Virus record (IMG/VR): IMGVR_UViG_2698536307_000009
Direction: 5' to 3' (one strand)
Source: a virus
Taxonomy: Duplodnaviria > Heunggongvirae > Uroviricota > Caudoviricetes
DNA length: 6,540 bases
The notes beneath the pieces were generated by a model. That model saw nothing but the letters and a program-made list of their open reading frames with translations. It searched no databases and had not been told where the DNA came from. Position numbers and translations under genes: made by a program. Of the stretch, positions 1-6,540 are shown piece after piece (position 1 is the first letter of the stretch; the number at the start of each line of letters is the position of its first letter).

Positions 1-1
1 G

Positions 2-23
2 GAAAAAATAGCCTAAATAGGCT
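2..23 (-). terminator. Putative intrinsic terminator downstream of tfa
   Basis: Minus strand reads AGCCT-ATTT-AGGCT (5-bp stem, plus 10-23) followed by ATTTTTT (plus 9-3), about 120 nt after the tfa stop. Confidence 0.4.
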
Positions 24-142
24 GATTCGATGTGTTTGCGGGAAAAAAATCGGCCCAGATCCGAGAAATTTTAATCAGCGAGTCAGCTTGGGAAGAAATG
101 ACCTGCTTATTCGCACCTTCCATAGAATTTATATGTTTTACC

Positions 143-718
143 CTACGGCAGTGCTGGCCATTCAATATCCGGTGCAGTTGATGTATCAACACGGTTCAGC
201 AACACCCGATACTTTTTCCAGGCTTCCAGCAACAAGGTTTCTTCCTCCGTTGCGATCTCCAGATCCACAGCATCCTGAAGCGGCGCTATATGCTCACTGG
301 CTATCTGCATCAGGCTGTTTTTTGTTTCTTCCGCCTCCCGGATCCGGAACAGTTTTTCTGCTTCCGTATCCTTCACCCAGGCTGTGCCGTTCCACTTCTG
401 ATATTCCCCTCCCGGCGATAACCAGGTAACATTTTCCGGTAACGGACCGAGTTCAGAAATAAATAACGCGTCGCCGGAAGCCACGTCATAAACCGTTTTA
501 CCCCGATGATCTTCAACGAGATGCCACGATGCCTCATCACTGTTGAAAACAGCCACGAAGCCTGCCGGAATATCTGGCGGTGCAATATCGGTACTGTTTG
601 CTGGCAGACCTGTATGAGGCGGAATATATGCGTCACCTTCACCAATAAATTCATTAGTTCCGGCCAGCAGATTATAAATTTTTATGGTCCGTGGTTGTTC
701 ACTCATTCTGAATGCCAT
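143..718 (-). CDS. tfaQ: Tail fiber assembly protein (lambda Tfa family), 191 aa
   Basis: 191-aa ORF; translation [35 protein letters not shown]...DIEWPALP matches lambda Tfa and the K-12 TfaQ/TfaR paralogs as I recall them. Start overlaps the upstream stf stop (TAATG). Symbol assigned from Qin-like gene context. Confidence 0.9.
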
Positions 719-1026
719 TACGCAAGCCTCACAATATAGTTAAATGCGATGTTTTTGACGGTGTTTTCCGCGTTACCAGCAGCGTTAACGGTGATGGTAT
801 GTCCATGTGAACCAATCGCAACGGAGTGCGTATGAGCACCAATACCGACAGTATGTGCGTGTGCACCTGCGCTTGCAGCAGTACCCGATACAGAGTGCGT
901 ATGAGCGCCTGCAGAAGAAGTGTTAACACTGTATTTAGAATAATCAGGTGATCCACTTCCCGGAGCACCACTGGAACCACCTGAAACAAATGTCATCGAA
1001 TGGGTATGTGCACCGGCTGTCCCCAT
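718..1026 (-). pseudogene. Side tail fiber (Stf) C-terminal fragment, remnant lacking its N-terminus
   Basis: 102-aa ORF with GAHTHS/HxH repeats typical of the distal receptor-binding tip of lambda Stf-like fibers. Begins at an internal ATG directly at the junction with J-derived DNA; translationally coupled to tfa. Confidence 0.7.
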
Positions 1027-2360
1027 GCATTTACCGCCCGGACTGTCAGCCTGTAATTTCCCAGCGCCAGCTGCGTGAAGCGATATGTGGTTTCCGTCGT
1101 CCGGGCCGTGCTGACCAACCGCTCACTGCCGTCGTCCGCTGCCACGGTCAGGCGAAGCATAAAGCTCACCCCCTTCACCACCTTCGGCGTGTCCCAGCGC
1201 GCCAGCACCTGGTATTCCCCGCTGTCTGCGGTGACTTCTGCGGTCAGGTGCTGAACTGCTGGCGGCGTGACACCATTCACCGTGCCGCTCTGGTCACCGT
1301 CAAAGTGCGCCCCGTTATCCACGATGGCTTCTTTCTCCGGTACATGCTGCACGGCAGTGATGGCATACGTACCGTCATCGTTCTCACGGATACTCACACA
1401 GCGGAACAGGCGCTGACGCAGCGTCGGCAGCTTCAGCCCCCACACGCTGTACTCGGCAACGCCGTCAGGAACCCGGCTCACTTTCACCTTCACGCCGTCG
1501 GTGACGGACTGGACCTCCACGCTCACCGGATTACCCTGCCCGTCAACCAGGCTTATCAGCGTGGTGCCGGAGGATGGCAGCGTGATTTCACGGTCGAGCG
1601 TCAGTGTCCGCGTCTGGCTGTTCACCGCCAGCACGCGCCCGCCGATGCTGATCCCCGCATAGTCATCATCACAGATTTCAATGACATCACCTGGTACATG
1701 GCGAAGCCCTTCGGCACCCACGCTGAAGTCCACGGTCTGCGTTTCCAGCAGTTCCGTTTTAATCAGCCACAGCCCGGCTCGGTGCGCCTGCCCCCGCCTG
1801 GTACAGCCAAAGGCATCCATCTTCGTGACGTTACGACCGTAACGGGCAATGGCCTGCGTGTCCTCCACAAGCTCTGTCGCCGTCTCCCAGCCGTTATCCG
1901 GGTCAATCCAGTTCACCTCAACGGCATTATGGCGGTCCTTCAGGGCGCTGAAGCTGTAGCGGAACGGCGCGCCATCATCCGGCATCACCACATTACTGCG
2001 GTTATAGGTCCACACCTTATCTGATGGTCGGTCCTGCACGAACGTCAGCGTCTGCCCGTTCCATACCGGCATACAGCGCATCGCCGAGCAGAAATCACTG
2101 AGAACATCCCACGCCTTACGCTGTGTGGTCAGCCAGGCATTACAGGTGATGCGCGGCTCCGTGCCGCCAAAACCGTCCGGCACCGACTGGTCGCAACACT
2201 GGCCGATGACATACAGCGCCCATTTATCCACATCTGCCGCACCAAGACGTTTACCCATGCCGTAGCGCGGGTGGCTGGAGATCTGTCTCGCTGGCCTGCC
2301 GCAGTTCTTCAACTTCCCGGCGCAGCTTTTCGTTCTCAATTTCAGCATCCCTTTCGGCAT
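993..2360 (-). pseudogene. Internal fragment of lambda J-like host specificity (tail tip) protein; J homology roughly 1017..2271
   Basis: 455-aa ORF; from YGMGKRLGAADVDKWALYVIGQ to [14 protein letters not shown] it matches the central part of lambda J (about residues 330-770 of 1132 from memory). The first ~28 codons are Nu1 DNA read out of frame; the last 7 codons (PVHIPIR) are stf DNA read out of frame. Confidence 0.85.
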
Positions 2361-2508
2361 ACCATTTTATGACGGCGGCAGAATCATAAAGCACCTCATT
2401 ACCCTTGCCACCGCCTCGCAGAACGGGCATTCCCTGTTCCTGCCAGTTCTGAATGGTACGGATACTCGCACCGAAAATGTCAGCCAGCTGCTTTTTGTTG
2501 ACTTCCAT
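2251..2508 (-). pseudogene. Terminase small subunit Nu1 homolog, N-terminal fragment (85 aa, winged-HTH DNA-binding domain retained)
   Basis: MEVNKKQLADIFGASIRTIQNWQEQGMPVLRGGGKGNEVLYDSAAVIKWYAERDAEIENEKLRREVEELRQASE matches lambda Nu1 residues 1-~77; after DLQP it diverges (PALRHG-stop) where J-derived DNA is fused, near plus 2271/2272. Native start codon and upstream cosB are intact. Confidence 0.85.
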
Positions 2509-2519
2509 TGTTCATTCCA

Positions 2520-2730
2520 CGGACAAAAACAGAGAAAGGAAACGACAAAGGCCAAAAAGCCCGCTTTCAGCACCTGTCGTTTCCTTTCTTTTCAGGGGGT
2601 ATTTTAAATAAAAACATTAAGTTACGACGAAGAAGAACGGAAACACCTTAAACCGGAAAATTTTCATAAATAGCGAAAACCCGCGAGGTCGCCGCCCCGT
2701 AACCTGTCGGATCACCGGAAAGGACCCGTA
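2520..2730. other. Lambda-type cohesive end site: cosB (2520-2685, with Nu1-binding R-like elements), cosN (2686-2697), cosQ side (2698-~2730)
   Basis: Plus 2686-2697 AGGTCGCCGCCC is the reverse complement of the lambda 12-nt cohesive end GGGCGGCGACCT. Flanks match the lambda left end (CGCGGGTTTTCGCTATTTATGAAAATTTTCCGG...) and right end (...CGACAGGTTACG) as recalled. Elements with the GTTTCC core are visible between cosN and the Nu1 start. Confidence 0.85.
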
Positions 2731-2896
2731 AAGTGATAATGATTATCATCTACATATCACAACGTGCGTGGAGGCCATCAAACCACGTCAAATAATCAAT
2801 TATGACGCAGGTATCGTATTAATTGATCTGCATCAACTTAACGTAAAAACAACTTCAGACAATACAAATCAGCGACACTGAATACGGGGCAACCTC

Positions 2897-3130
2897 ATGT
2901 CAACGAAGAACAGAACCCGCAGAACAACAACCCGCAACATCCGCTTTCCTAACCAAATGATTGAACAAATTAACATCGCTCTTGAGCAAAAAGGGTCCGG
3001 GAATTTCTCAGCCTGGGTCATTGAAGCCTGCCGCCGGAGACTGTGCTCAGAAAAAAGAGTTTCTTCTGAAGCAAACAAAGAAAAGAGTGACATTACTGAA
3101 TTGCTCAGAAAACAGGTCAGACCAGATTGA
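2897..3130 (+). CDS. ynfO: Small basic protein YnfO-like (77 aa), predicted ribbon-helix-helix (Arc/MetJ-like) DNA-binding fold
   Basis: ATG-initiated 77-aa ORF in lambda right-end-like DNA. Basic N-terminus (KNRTRRTTTR), then a strand-helix-helix pattern (NIRFP / NQMIEQINIALEQKG / NFSAWVIEACRRRL). Position and size fit K-12 Qin ynfO; the fold is inferred from the pattern only. Confidence 0.65.
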   Translation: MSTKNRTRRTTTRNIRFPNQMIEQINIALEQKGSGNFSAWVIEACRRRLCSEKRVSSEANKEKSDITELLRKQVRPD

Positions 3131-3187
3131 AGCAATTTAGATAATCGTGCAGACTACGCCCCCTCATATCACATGGAAGGTTTATCT

Positions 3188-3598
3188 ATGGATCAGGTAG
3201 TCATTTTTAAACAAATATTTGATAAAGTTCGAAACGATTTAAACTATCAATGGTTTTATTCTGAGCTAAAACGTCACAATGTCTCACATTACATTTACTA
3301 TTTAGCCACAGAGAATGTTCATATTGTATTAAAAAATGATAATACAGTGTTATTAAAGGGCCTAAAAAACATTGTGTCTGTCAAATTTTCAAAGGATAGG
3401 CATCTTATAGAAACGACCTCTAATAAGCTGAAATCCAGAGAGATCACATTTCAGGAATACAGAAGAAACCTTGCTAAAGCAGGAGTTTTTCGGTGGGTTA
3501 CAAATATCCACGAACAAAAAAGATATTACTATACCTTTGATAATTCATTACTATTTACTGAAAGCATCCAGAAAACTACACAGATCTTACCACGCTAA
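3188..3598 (+). CDS. ydfO: YdfO/YbcV family protein (DUF1398), 136 aa
   Basis: [34 protein letters not shown]...QILPR. Start placed at ATG 3188, which has a GGAAGG Shine-Dalgarno 7 nt upstream (3175-3180); the in-frame ATG at 3173 has none. Confidence 0.85.
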
Positions 3599-3606
3599 AC
3601 CATAAC

Positions 3607-3635
3607 GTCCGGCTTCTCTCACTCCTGAGCCGGAC
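3607..3635 (+). terminator. Hairpin 9 nt after the ydfO stop (possible terminator, weak U-tract)
   Basis: Perfect 8-bp inverted repeat GTCCGGCT...AGCCGGAC with a 13-nt loop, followed by TGCATTGGTTTAAT. Confidence 0.3.
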
Positions 3636-3700
3636 TGCATTGGTTTAATAAAAACCATCAACAATTGTGATTTAGATATTCGGAACCATTCAAATATAAC

Positions 3701-3723
3701 AAAACCCCGTAAAAACGAGGTTT
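3701..3723 (-). terminator. Possible bidirectional terminator between convergent ydfO and gnsB
   Basis: Minus strand AAACCUCG-UUUUUA-CGGGGUUU: stem with one G-U wobble, flanked by A and U runs, about 30 nt after the gnsB stop. Confidence 0.25.
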
Positions 3724-3749
3724 ATGGATAAATTTTATTATTGAATACA

Positions 3750-3923
3750 TCAGATTAAATTAATCTTGACATCATAGCTTTCAAGACCCGTCATTTTTTC
3801 CCGTGCGGTAAACTGAATACTGGTAACTTCTTTCCCGGTCTTTTTCTTAAGTTCAATAATTTTTTTTGTTATATATTCAGAAATATCTGCTTCTGCTTTT
3901 GTTTTTAAGTTTTCAATATTCAT
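3750..3923 (-). CDS. gnsB: GnsB (GnsA/GnsB family small protein, 57 aa)
   Basis: Not in the supplied ORF track (below its size cutoff). Minus-strand translation is MNIENLKTKAEADISEYITKKIIELKKKTGKEVTSIQFTAREKMTGLESYDVKINLI. AAGAGGAA Shine-Dalgarno immediately upstream. Family and symbol from recalled GnsA/GnsB sequence and Qin gene order. Confidence 0.8.
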   Translation of the reverse strand: MNIENLKTKAEADISEYITKKIIELKKKTGKEVTSIQFTAREKMTGLESYDVKINLI

Positions 3924-3965
3924 CATTTCCTCTTTTAGTCTGTTATGACTTTCCAGTTACACAGT

Positions 3966-4000
3966 AAGTCGATTATATGGTGCAAACGTGTAAAAGATAA
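3966..4000 (-). promoter_or_regulatory. Candidate sigma70 promoter for gnsB
   Basis: Perfect -10 TATAAT (minus strand, plus 3977-3972) about 50 nt upstream of the gnsB start; the -35 at 17-bp spacing is weak (TTATCT). Confidence 0.3.
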
Positions 4001-4094
4001 GATGAAACATCGCAATAATCAACATACGATAGTCTAAATTTTACACAAACAGACAAAGAGAATTTTCCTGAATTATCAATGCAATAGCATCAAA

Positions 4095-4250
4095 TCAACT
4101 CAAGAGCCTTATTGCTGCTTCCAGAATTTCTTCTGAAGTAACATGTCGATCCGCGGCTACATAAATGACTTTATGATCTCCGGTCAGAGATGGAAACCCT
4201 GCGGCCATTACAGTAAGGTGTGTTTTTTCGCCATTTGGATATTCACGCAT
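4095..4250 (-). CDS. ynfN: YnfN-like small protein (51 aa if started at MREYPNGEK; alternative in-frame ATG at 4325 gives 76 aa)
   Basis: Open frame ending at 4095; the track's start at 4367 is TTG. The ATG at 4250 has GGAG 11 nt upstream and gives the 51-aa length I recall for K-12 YnfN. The minus-strand terminator at 4370-4389 leaves little room for a promoter ahead of the upstream starts. Confidence 0.5.
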   Translation of the reverse strand: MREYPNGEKTHLTVMAAGFPSLTGDHKVIYVAADRHVTSEEILEAAIRLLS

Positions 4251-4369
4251 GATGGTGTTAACTCCAGTCATCGCTGGCACTACCACTGCTGGTTCAGAGT
4301 TAAAAAAAACTATGATTTTTTTCATGATGTTACCGTAGTATGTGAGTATCCATCGAATAGACACCAAGC

Positions 4370-4389
4370 AAAAAAGCTCCCGAAGGAGC
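4370..4389 (-). terminator. Intrinsic terminator between cspI and ynfN
   Basis: Minus strand GCUCC-UUCG-GGAGC (GC-rich 5-bp stem, UUCG tetraloop) followed by UUUUUU; plus 4376-4389 stem-loop with the A-run at 4370-4375. Confidence 0.6.
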
Positions 4390-4596
4390 CTTCATTTTCA
4401 CTTTTTTAAATCCAACGACAGACGGCTGGCATTTAAGTATTGTGAAATATTATCAAATGTAATCATCATTGATTTACAAAAGATACATTTTGCCCCGAAA
4501 GGATTCATGTCAGAAACATCAAAAGATGATGTTCTATACTGGGAACCATGACAACACGGGCATCTAAAGTGAATATGGTTTGTAATATTGTCTACC

Positions 4597-4809
4597 TCAA
4601 AGCGCCACTACATGAACAGCGGCAGGACCTTTAGGTCCGTTCTCAATACCAAATTCAACTTCCTGATTCTCAGTTAATGTTTTGAAATCGTTGCTCTGAA
4701 TTGCTGAGAAATGGACAAACACATCTTTGCTGCCATCTTTCGGCGTGATGAAACCAAAACCTTTTTCAGGGTTAAACCATTTCACTAAACCAGTCATTTT
4801 GTTAGACAT
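4597..4809 (-). CDS. cspI: Cold shock protein, CspA family (70 aa), CspI-like
   Basis: [70 protein letters not shown] carries the RNP1 (KGFGFI) and RNP2 (VFVHF) motifs. Shine-Dalgarno AAAGGTAATAATT-ATG resembles cspA. Neighbours fit K-12 Qin cspI. Confidence 0.93.
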
Positions 4810-4989
4810 AATTATTACCTTTTGAAGAAATTAGCCCTTGGGCAGAATGGTCCGAAAAAAAATATCAGAGAGAAAAACCAACAAGGAAATCTCAAGAGGT
4901 ACAAATAATAAAATTATAACAATGACTGCTTCAGATAAATTTGTAACAAACCAGAACACCATTAACGCATGATTAACCACCCATAGCAA
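4810..4989 (-). promoter_or_regulatory. cspI promoter and long 5' leader with cold-box-like element
   Basis: Minus strand: -35 TTGCTA (plus 4989-4984), 17-bp spacer, -10 GTTAAT (plus 4966-4961), resembling cspA TTGCAT/CTTAAT. Predicted leader about 145 nt; GGTTTGTTACAAAT near its 5' end resembles the cspA cold box. Confidence 0.45.
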
Positions 4990-5171
4990 GGATTACTTTT
5001 GTAAAGAAAAACACAGCAATGAAAGAATGGCTTTATTTATTAATAAAACGTGTCATTCTGATTAAGACCTTTTATCTTACCCTTAAGATTTCAGGAATTT
5101 TGGCTCATGGAAGAGTCCTTTTTATTTAAATTTTACATTCCGCGATGTAAATGTTCCGATTTAATATTACC

Positions 5172-6195
<1,024 letters not shown>

Positions 6196-6199
<4 letters not shown>

Positions 6200-6425
6200 A
6201 GATATTTATGATGAGGACGCTCGTGCTTATTGGCAGGATTTTCAATCTTAAAGGAGTACTGATGCTGCAGATAAGACTCAACTTTTTCTGACAATTTTTC
6301 TGCTACTTCCAGGAAGACTTGCCGGACGCTCCTTCTGGCTGCTGCCTCATAAAACTCCAGCGCAGCTCCTTCAACACGGTCCATGGCGACATCCAGGTCA
6401 AAAATTTCACCGTCAAAGCGTTCTT
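6196..6425 (-). CDS. ydfR: YdfR-like protein, 5'-truncated by IS1 insertion (likely pseudogene); first ATG at 6384 gives 62 aa
   Basis: Frame is open from the stop at 6196 to the IS1 boundary at 6425/6426 with no start codon except the internal ATG at 6384, which lacks a Shine-Dalgarno. Position between the endolysin and where the holin would lie fits ydfR. Stop overlaps the rrrQ start (ATGA). Confidence 0.5.
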
Positions 6426-6540
6426 GGTAATGACTCCAACTTATTGATAGTGTTTTATGTTCAGATAATGCCCGATGACTTTGTCATGCAGCTCCACCGA
6501 TTTTGAGAACGACAGCGACTTCCGTCCCAGCCGTGCCAGG
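6426..6540 (-). mobile_element. IS1 insertion sequence, terminal 115 bp including the right inverted repeat; element continues beyond the window
   Basis: Plus 6426-6455 GGTAATGACTCCAACTTATTGATAGTGTTT is the IS1 right-end inverted repeat; the following sequence matches the IS1 3' region in reverse complement as recalled. Confidence 0.9.
6441..6540 (-). CDS. insB: IS1 transposase InsB (InsAB') C-terminal end, partial at window edge
   Basis: Minus-strand translation ends ...[19 protein letters not shown]-stop, with the stop codon at plus 6441-6443. Confidence 0.8.

Follow-up and report, generated by a model that had tools for sequence, protein, structure and literature searches.

The stretch of DNA analyzed here (6,540 nucleotides; hereafter the window) carried on its minus strand, in the order of reading, a phage cos region, codons 1–79 of the terminase small-subunit gene Nu1 (2508–2272), codons 282–700 of the tail-tip/host-specificity gene J (2274–1016), the end of the side tail fibre gene stf (1019–718), and the tail fibre assembly gene tfaQ (718–143). 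The frames of Nu1, J, stf, and tfa, expressed as start coordinate modulo 3, were 0, 2, 0, and 1, respectively. This arrangement was collinear with the lambda late operon (Nu1, J, stf/orf-314, and tfa) and in the same orientation, with 98% identity in Nu1 and 94% in tfa. Two blocks of lambda DNA were absent, one starting with A and ending after the first quarter of J (15.9 kb) and the other covering the last third of J, lom, and most of stf (about 4–5 kb), and the joints were out of frame. In nucleotide alignments, lambda J (17608–16347) matched window 1013–2274 with 92.6% identity (98.3% for J of mEp460 by blastn), and lambda tfa together with the stf 3′ end matched window 153–867 with 93.8% identity. 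Because the E-values were 0 or near 0, chance similarity was excluded.

The left end of the phage chromosome, with the cos region upstream of Nu1, was located at 2509–2697 by its match to lambda. Lambda 427–1 aligned with window 2272–2697 (98.1% identity) and lambda 48502–48300 with window 2698–2900 (100% identity), which placed cos at 2697/2698. The 12-nt cohesive-end sequence GGGCGGCGACCT, identical to that of lambda, could be read directly at 2686–2697. Downstream of cos, an 85-aa ORF (2251–2508) consisted of Nu1 codons 1–79 (2272–2508), followed by six out-of-frame codons and a stop codon. The fragment showed 98.7% amino acid identity with residues 1–79 of lambda Nu1 and matched profile positions 1–81 of the 164 positions of Pfam Phage_Nu1 (PF07471; E = 1.4e-48). 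Full-length Nu1 comprises an N-terminal winged-helix DNA-binding domain and a C-terminal part responsible for self-assembly and gpA binding. With 79 codons against approximately 181 aa for the full protein, the window product was a fragment and not a functional Nu1 family member, and RefSeq described it in E. coli BUCT2930 as a terminase small subunit that is "incomplete, missing C-terminus".

The J fragment (1016–2274) retained the central 419 of approximately 1132 codons and had 97.1 and 99.5% amino acid identity with residues 282–700 of the J proteins of lambda and mEp460, respectively. In J/TipJ proteins, which are approximately 1130 aa long, an N-terminal hub precedes central Phage-tail_3 and Ig-like domains, and a receptor-binding domain forms the C-terminus. 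The fragment contained Phage-tail_3 and one Ig_J domain in Pfam searches, and lacked residues 1–281, residues 701–1132 (including the C-terminal receptor-binding part), and an in-frame start codon; it thus represented a portion of a J/TipJ protein, annotated in BUCT2930 as host specificity protein J, "incomplete, missing N- and C-terminus". The stf fragment (718–1019), which had no start codon of its own and contained GAHTHS repeats, corresponded to the last 99–100 of 1075 codons, with 99% amino acid identity to residues 977–1075 of the 1075-aa full-length protein encoded by strain IPCEC31. Lambdoid Stf proteins are long fibres that begin with a prophage tail fibre N-terminal domain and end in a receptor-binding tip bearing Phage_fiber repeats. 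Of these, the window retained a Phage_fiber repeat and lacked the prophage tail fibre N-terminal domain; this remainder of an Stf protein was labelled in BUCT2930 as a tail fiber protein, "incomplete, missing N-terminus".

Directly downstream of the stf fragment, tfaQ (143–718) was a complete ORF of 191 codons. Its product belonged to the Tfa family (Caudo_TAP, PF02413; E = 2.4e-43) and could be aligned along its full length with lambda Tfa and K-12 TfaQ, at 96.3 and 95.3% amino acid identity, respectively; the identical sequence in BUCT2930 was annotated as tfaQ (WP_000885600.1). Only tfaQ, cos, and the DNA-binding N-terminal part of Nu1 were left structurally whole in this remnant, and any capacity for tail construction was absent from 718–2508.

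The two junctions were resolved at the base level. At the first (2272–2274), which was compared with the Nu1 and J genes of less-deleted Qin alleles, K-12 nohA, lambda, and mEp460, Nu1 homology reached position 2272 and J homology began at 2274, with an overlap of 3 bp (CCA on the phage strand). This junction coupled Nu1 codon 79 with J codon 281; both breakpoints were in phase 2, and the frames nonetheless differed. At the second (1016–1019), mEp460 J and the full-length stf of IPCEC31 were both compared with the window without gaps, which showed that J homology reached 1016 and stf homology began at 1019, with an overlap of 4 bp (CAGC on the phage strand). Here, J codon 702 in phase 0 was coupled with stf codon 976 in phase 1, and the frame was consequently lost. 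In lambda coordinates, the DNA missing at the Nu1/J junction was 428–16346 (15,919 bp), and that missing at the J/stf junction began at 17609 and continued as far as the stf 3′ end (about 4–5 kb, J codon 702 through stf codon 976). No IS sequence was found at either joint. The parents at each joint were non-homologous and shared only 3 and 4 bp, as in microhomology-mediated (illegitimate) deletion, and the remaining joints of the allelic series described below had 0–5 bp of microhomology, as judged against the nearest available parent. The combination of 3–4 shared bp and a frame shift at each junction would be the signature of RecA-independent illegitimate recombination.

These results agreed closely with a first-pass annotation made from the letters of the sequence, which had described a three-part deletion scar with Nu1, J, and stf fragments joined out of frame, breakpoints near 2271/2272 and 1017–1026, losses of about 16 kb and a few kb, and an intact tfa. 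The peptides it had quoted on either side of the breakpoints (ETDLQP, HPRYGMGKRLGAADVDKW, AWGQ, and GAHTHS) were all located, the breakpoint alignments supported the reading as a deletion scar, and the microhomology that it had suggested looking for was present at both joints. The scar is thus real. It is also ordinary, and RefSeq/PGAP already annotated the three pieces as partial pseudogenes in the identical genomes.

The surrounding genes assigned the locus to the cryptic prophage Qin. The Qin region of BUCT2930 was 100% identical to window 122–2900 and had the order ydfJ′, ynfT, ydfK, pinQ, tfaQ, stf′, J′, Nu1′, ynfO, ydfO, followed by gnsB, ynfN, cspI, rzpQ, rrrQ, ydfR, essD, cspB, and cspF. 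Window 122–6428 was collinear with the ydfJ′-flanked Qin regions of BUCT2930 and other strains; the pinQ/ydfJ side itself was missing from the window because the end of an IS5 occupied 1–121. In a megablast of the whole window against 5426 complete E. coli genomes, none had both of its IS junctions (IS5 and IS1), and exact patterns of the IS5/tfaQ and Nu1/J junctions gave no hits in species-representative genomes; the source may be a Shigella strain or an unlisted E. coli. The site at the 5′ end of ydfJ and the characteristic order (pinQ, tfaQ ... ynfO-ydfO-gnsB-ynfN-cspI-rzpQ-rrrQ-ydfR-essQ-cspB-cspF) are those of Qin, and the neighbors and gene order of K-12 Qin agreed with those of BUCT2930. 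Qin has been described as cryptic, lacking genes required for making phage progeny (PMC6832061), and its size ranges from 11 to 97 kb across 189 strains (PMC6379469). From these data, we concluded with a probability of approximately 0.93 that window 718–2508 is what remains of the late operon (packaging, head, and tail genes) of the lambdoid cryptic prophage Qin at ydfJ and that its fragments are, as we infer, non-functional.

The window carried a non-K-12 allele of Qin, which was 100% identical to the sequences of 25 complete E. coli genomes. K-12 Qin (Kim; nohA-stfQ-tfaQ, b1546–b1548) shares with the window the ydfJ site, the flanking genes on both sides, and the presence of a late-operon deletion remnant, with 98.4% identity in cos and the 5′ part of Nu1 and 96% in tfaQ and the stf 3′ end. 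The locus is that of K-12 Qin, with which the first-pass annotation had proposed an alignment, but the K-12 scar was a different one (nohA/stfQ): lambda 1–719, comprising full Nu1 and the first bases of A, was joined straight to 963 nt of stf and J was absent, whereas the window had only Nu1 codons 1–79, about 300 nt of stf, and 1.26 kb of J. As no derivation of one form from the other is possible in either direction, the two arose by independent deletions.

Across 5426 complete E. coli genomes, 91 had the J/stf junction, which was also found in 11 metagenome contigs; the Nu1/J junction occurred in 25 complete genomes and one metagenome contig (L024). Although 69 genomes covered at least 80% of the 2.1-kb region, only those 25 had the arrangement of the window; the assumption that all 69 did so was rejected, as the remainder were other Qin alleles or the DLP12 prophages of B and C strains. 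Upstream of the shared J/stf junction, we distinguished at least ten alleles with differing, partly nested amounts of the morphogenesis block. In lambda coordinates, 1332KP retained 1–956 and 13434–17608; P13-6 retained 1–956, 13434–13575, and 16534–17608; TB06053 and 300709 retained 1–703, 2177–3501, 5294–5626, 9780–10687, and 15668–17608; NCTC9040 retained 1–703, 2177–3470, and 16136–17608; FDAARGOS_1337 retained 1–699 and 16135–17608; F829 retained 1–701 and 16726–17608; the window type retained 1–427 and 16347–17608; and the metagenome contigs L018 and L022 retained 1–703 and 17302–17608. Of the genes A, W, B, C, G, T, H, L, K, I, and J, sister alleles at the same locus thus kept intermediate amounts. 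The series was not strictly linear, as the 1332KP and TB06053 branches each retained DNA absent from the other. Over the shared segments (2754 nt), there were no substitutions among the window, FDAARGOS_1337, NCTC9040, TB06053, and 1332KP alleles, indicating that deletions had outpaced substitutions. The window allele could be derived from the FDAARGOS_1337 allele by a single 480-bp deletion, and the latter is likely the immediate parent form.

A related scar occurs in DLP12 of E. coli B, BL21, and C, which is likewise a lambdoid cryptic prophage with a Nu1/A–J deletion, in which Nu1 is fused to a 5′-truncated J. DLP12 is, however, a different prophage at another site (ompT/appY) with about 95% identity to the window, and its J runs past codon 701 into full stf. 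The window junction (427/16347) falls inside the 699/16135 junction of DLP12 and was not found in DLP12. The 699/16135 junction was base-identical in DLP12 (B and C lineages) and in the Qin of FDAARGOS_1337, with different flanking SNPs, and three junctions in all shared an endpoint in J at lambda 16135/6 (GTGCTACCCGAAC). Copying of the FDAARGOS_1337 junction from DLP12 of the same genome was unsupported, as the junction occurs once there; its flanks were of the Qin type, with 0–1 mismatch compared with 8 to DLP12-B. The shared endpoint could reflect a sequence-determined deletion hot spot in J, or the transfer of a deletion joint from one resident prophage to another by very short-tract gene conversion. 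We raise only tentatively, and with more doubt than confidence, the view that the Qin late region is a natural time-lapse of prophage decay with a recurrent deletion endpoint.

A 455-aa ORF (993–2360, minus strand) spanned both junctions. It consisted of 37 out-of-frame Nu1 codons, J codons 282–700, and 8 out-of-frame stf codons; its ATG was internal to the coding part of Nu1 and in a different frame, and no clear Shine–Dalgarno motif was recognized before this start by reading of the sequence. On the plus strand, a 358-aa ORF (948–2024) antisense to J was rejected as a gene, being unannotated in all identical genomes; a long antisense ORF is expected opposite a G+C-rich coding region. The 455-aa ORF is long and open, and in a few PGAP runs (e.g. 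F829) its counterpart was named "phage tail protein" and not flagged as a pseudogene, as would be the case for a contiguous, breakpoint-free tail protein belonging to another family of phages, the finding that the first-pass annotation had named as fatal to its proposal. Most genomes, however, carried a pseudogene annotation only; the two ends of the ORF are out-of-frame Nu1 and stf sequence; in intact relatives (lambda, mEp460, and about 250 other phages) J runs on beyond the fragment on both sides; and in less-deleted alleles of the same locus J, in 100% identical sequence, extends further upstream. We therefore consider this explanation, which the breakpoint alignments refute, scarcely credible: the ORF is an accidental one and not a natural tail protein. 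Even less probable, to the point of being negligible, was an artefact of assembly or sequencing through collapse between lambdoid prophages of one genome, for although E. coli genomes contain many near-identical Nu1 and J copies (median of four places per genome), the same 2.1 kb was found in the 25 complete genomes, whose projects and hosts were unrelated, as well as in metagenome assemblies made independently; these genomes and contig L024 carried both junctions.

An exchange of modules among lambdoid phages, whether homologous or linker-mediated, was also considered in place of deletion within the prophage, as mosaicism is common to the late regions and tail fibre genes of lambdoid phages, the stf fragment upstream of window position ~909 differed from K-12 stfQ and lambda, and the 699/16135 junction was present in both DLP12 and Qin. 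Such exchange yields in-frame or intergenic joints, whereas both window junctions were out of frame, inside coding sequences, and supported by only 3–4 shared bp; moreover, all alleles were at one chromosomal site with identical flanks, and a search of 50,697 phage records found none with coverage of the scar region reaching 80%. Exchange is thus very unlikely to account for the arrangement. Slightly less improbable, yet still poorly favored, is that the remnant is a domesticated module kept for host use, be it the 85-aa Nu1 fragment by the intact cos, the J polypeptide, or TfaQ. It has been argued that genes of cryptic prophages can be retained for host benefit (PMC6832061; PMC6379469). In this locus, cos and Nu1 codons 1–79 are intact, tfaQ was intact in every allele seen, and the J frame is still open over 419 codons. 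The open frame is, however, uninformative on function because the alleles are too young, as reflected in the lack of substitutions noted above; it is expected for a young deletion and alone is no proof against function. Against this view, the alleles retained anything between 307 nt and 4.2 kb of J, and K-12 had none; the J fragment of TB06053 was annotated with an internal stop, and Nu1 ended at codon 79 in the window allele only.

Deletion within the prophage remained the preferred reading, for which we propose the following history. The ancestral prophage would have had a lambda-like order of cos, Nu1, A ... J, lom, stf, and tfa. Its first loss may have been the segment of about 4–5 kb that separates J codon 702 from stf codon 976, since the J/stf junction, common to 91 genomes compared with 25 for the Nu1/J junction, appears to be the older; it is the deletion that the first-pass annotation had called "second". 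DNA between Nu1 and J would then have been lost, either at once or, as is more likely, through several deletions in succession, and a final deletion would have coupled Nu1 codon 79 to J codon 281. As sister alleles hold intermediate amounts of the block, the 16-kb loss was probably stepwise and not a single event. Each deletion may have proceeded by RecA-independent illegitimate recombination, e.g. replication slippage or microhomology-mediated end joining. No intact ancestor with the J/stf junction and a complete Nu1-to-J block was found among the genomes compared, and the proposed sequence of deletions is thus based on parsimony; the presence of the 699/16135 junction in DLP12 of E. coli B and C makes recurrence or recombination between alleles possible.

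For annotation, these results mean that the 455-aa ORF should not carry the label "tail protein" and that the three pieces are pseudogene fragments. In the prophage-decay model of defective or "grounded" prophages, morphogenesis genes are lost stepwise and accessory genes, such as cspI, gnsB, relBE, hokD, and dicBF in Qin, persist, and prophage size varies strongly between strains (PMC6379469). The Qin locus is the same in kind and offers an unusually clean, deletion-only series of alleles. Its value lies in these base-resolved and partly nested deletions, through which a lambdoid prophage can be followed losing its virion genes while its accessory genes are kept.

Sequence comparison showed that window 143-2900 on the minus strand was a lambdoid left arm lacking large pieces. 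The right end of lambda (48502-48300) matched window 2698-2900 with 100% identity and lambda 427-1 matched window 2272-2697 with 98.1% identity, both on the minus strand, which placed cos at 2697/2698. The cohesive-end sequence GGGCGGCGACCT lay at 2686-2697, and both this end and the cos region upstream of it were intact. On the same strand, window 1013-2274 matched lambda J 17608-16347 with 92.6% identity and J of phage mEp460 with 98.3% identity, and window 153-867 matched lambda tfa and the 3' end of stf with 93.8% identity. All four ORFs listed in the first-pass annotation were recovered on the minus strand: an 85-aa ORF at 2251-2508 (Pfam Phage_Nu1, profile positions 1-81 of 164), a 455-aa ORF at 993-2360 (Phage-tail_3 and Ig_J), a 102-aa ORF at 718-1026 (Phage_fiber repeat), and a 191-aa ORF at 143-718 (Caudo_TAP). 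In protein comparisons, the three fragments corresponded to residues 1-79 of lambda Nu1 (98.7%), residues 282-700 of J (99.5% with mEp460 and 97.1% with lambda), and the C-terminal 99 residues of a side tail fibre 1075 aa in length (99%). Tfa, which the annotation had taken to be intact, was full length and 96.3% identical to lambda Tfa. The 85-aa ORF kept the whole N-terminal helix-turn-helix part of Nu1, with weak MerR and HTH_17 matches besides Phage_Nu1. Within the stf fragment there was a mosaic boundary at window ~909: the downstream part matched K-12 stfQ and lambda (96%), and window 910-1019 belonged to another stf type. Strain IPCEC31 has a full-length copy of that type (3228 nt), and the terminase of its prophage at the ydfJ site was different as well (DUF1441 and a large subunit).

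Three-way ungapped comparisons with the nearest available parents mapped both joints to the base. Nu1 homology extended to window 2272 and J homology began at 2274, with CCA shared (three bases, phage strand); J homology extended to 1016 and homology with the full-length stf of IPCEC31 began at 1019, with CAGC shared (four bases). The frames (start coordinate mod 3) were 0, 2, and 0 for Nu1, J, and stf, respectively, in agreement with the out-of-frame joints that had been read near 2271/2272 and 1017-1026. The 455-aa ORF was a composite of the three genes instead of a contiguous natural tail protein; it consisted of 37 out-of-frame Nu1 codons, J codons 282-700, and eight out-of-frame stf codons followed by a stop, and from these frames we conclude that it is an accident of joining. 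Relative to lambda, 428-16346 (15,919 bp) was absent, as was the stretch from 17609 to ~300 nt before the stf end (~4 kb in lambda, ~4.9 kb with the 3.2-kb stf), close to the predicted losses of about 16 kb and a few kb. The fragment homologies, the out-of-frame joints, and the breakpoints relative to intact relatives thus all supported the reading as a deletion scar.

In E. coli BUCT2930, whose Qin region is identical to window 122-2900, the arm was flanked on one side by ydfJ', ynfT, ydfK, and pinQ and on the other by ynfO, ydfO, gnsB, ynfN, cspI, rzpQ, rrrQ, ydfR, essD, cspB, and cspF. The ynfN gene was annotated as 231 nt in non-K-12 Qin alleles (L001, 12496-12726) versus 156 nt in K-12 MG1655 (L002, 7955-8110). 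Window 1-121 consisted of one end of an IS5-like element and was 100% identical to ISKpn26 in L011; this insertion lay 21 nt beyond the tfaQ stop on its downstream side and displaced pinQ from its usual place; window 6426-6540 was an IS1B end (100% identity) inserted in ydfR. The two IS junctions occurred together in none of 5426 complete E. coli genomes, so the window may derive from an IS-rich strain, for example a Shigella, and an exact-pattern scan of species-representative genomes gave zero matches for the IS5/tfaQ or the Nu1/J junction. K-12 MG1655 carried a different scar at the same site, in which nohA (lambda 1-719) directly abutted 963 nt of stfQ and J was entirely absent. Because each form retains sequence missing from the other (Nu1 and stf in K-12, J in the window), the two scars were independent deletions from fuller ancestors.

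The J/stf junction was present in 91 of the 5426 genomes and in 11 metagenome contigs, and the window's Nu1/J junction in only 25 genomes and one contig. At least 10 Qin alleles (L005, L006, L008, L009, L010, L013, L014, L018, L021, and L022) had the J/stf junction in common, and upstream of it, always at the Qin site, retained portions of A, W, B, C, G, T, H, L, K, I, and J that differed between alleles and were partly nested. Before stf', 1332KP retained lambda 1-956 and 13434-17608; P13-6 and four ETEC strains 1-956, 13434-13575, and 16534-17608; TB06053 and 300709 1-703, 2177-3501, 5294-5626, 9780-10687, and 15668-17608; NCTC9040 1-703, 2177-3470, and 16136-17608; FDAARGOS_1337 1-699 and 16135-17608; F829 1-701 and 16726-17608; the window type 1-427 and 16347-17608; and two metagenome contigs (L018, L022) 1-703 and 17302-17608. 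The 2754 nt common to the window, FDAARGOS_1337, NCTC9040, TB06053, and 1332KP were 100% identical, indicating that these five fully aligned alleles diverged by deletion alone and that deletions were faster than point mutation. Strain 300709 had three differing sites in shared segments, and strain 17MR471 carried a three-piece version of the region with 95.7% identity.

A single deletion of 480 bp from the FDAARGOS_1337 form, or of 3416 bp from the 1332KP form, suffices to give the window allele; the 16-kb loss was therefore probably cumulative and not a single event. The simplest reading is a three-step history, in which the J/stf deletion would have come earliest, two or more branches (1332KP-like, TB06053-like) would each have lost different internal blocks, and later deletions across earlier joints would have produced the shorter forms. 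This order was inferred by parsimony, because no ancestor was found that combined the J/stf joint with an unbroken Nu1-to-J block. There was no IS or recombinase site at either joint of the window, and the other junctions of the series had 0-5 bp of microhomology. Short microhomology (3-4 bp) at out-of-frame intragenic joints lacking such sites is typical of illegitimate, RecA-independent deletion, possibly by replication slippage or end joining.

The FDAARGOS_1337 junction (lambda 699/16135, GAACTGATA/CCCGAACACGG; L006, 5823-5942) was base-identical to the Nu1/J' junction of DLP12, a cryptic prophage at another chromosomal site, in E. coli B, BL21, C, and ATCC 8739; in DLP12 it occurred in ~64 genomes (L012, ~8400-8480, in E. 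coli B ATCC 11303). This sharing suggests either a deletion hot spot in J or transfer of a joint between prophages, and a third reading is that a deletion may have happened to stop at an older joint. The B/J junction of NCTC9040 (B 3470, J 16136) ended 1 nt from 16135. The FDAARGOS_1337 genome had only one copy of the junction, and its flanks were of the Qin type, with 0-1 mismatch against 1332KP versus 8 per 600 nt against DLP12 of E. coli B.

Nothing that we saw pointed to functional maintenance of the fragments. The retained J length ranged from 307 nt to 4.2 kb among the alleles, with none in K-12, and J' of TB06053 was annotated with an internal stop; the open J' frame is uninformative, the alleles being too young. 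Both tfaQ and cos remained structurally whole, as did the DNA-binding N-terminus of Nu1, and a role is possible for any of them.

Among cryptic prophages Qin is a textbook case, in which genes for virion production have been lost (PMC6832061). Its reported size in 189 surveyed strains spans 11 to 97 kb, and the numbers of capsid, tail, and host-specificity genes vary too (PMC6379469). At the Qin locus of BUCT2930, the three pieces are already entered by RefSeq/PGAP as partial pseudogenes of a tail fiber protein (N-terminus missing), host specificity protein J (N- and C-terminus missing), and the terminase small subunit (C-terminus missing). The deletion scar is thus real, was correctly interpreted, and is already known in kind, its exact allele being these RefSeq pseudogenes; the allelic series, resolved to the base, illustrates it neatly but is not a discovery.
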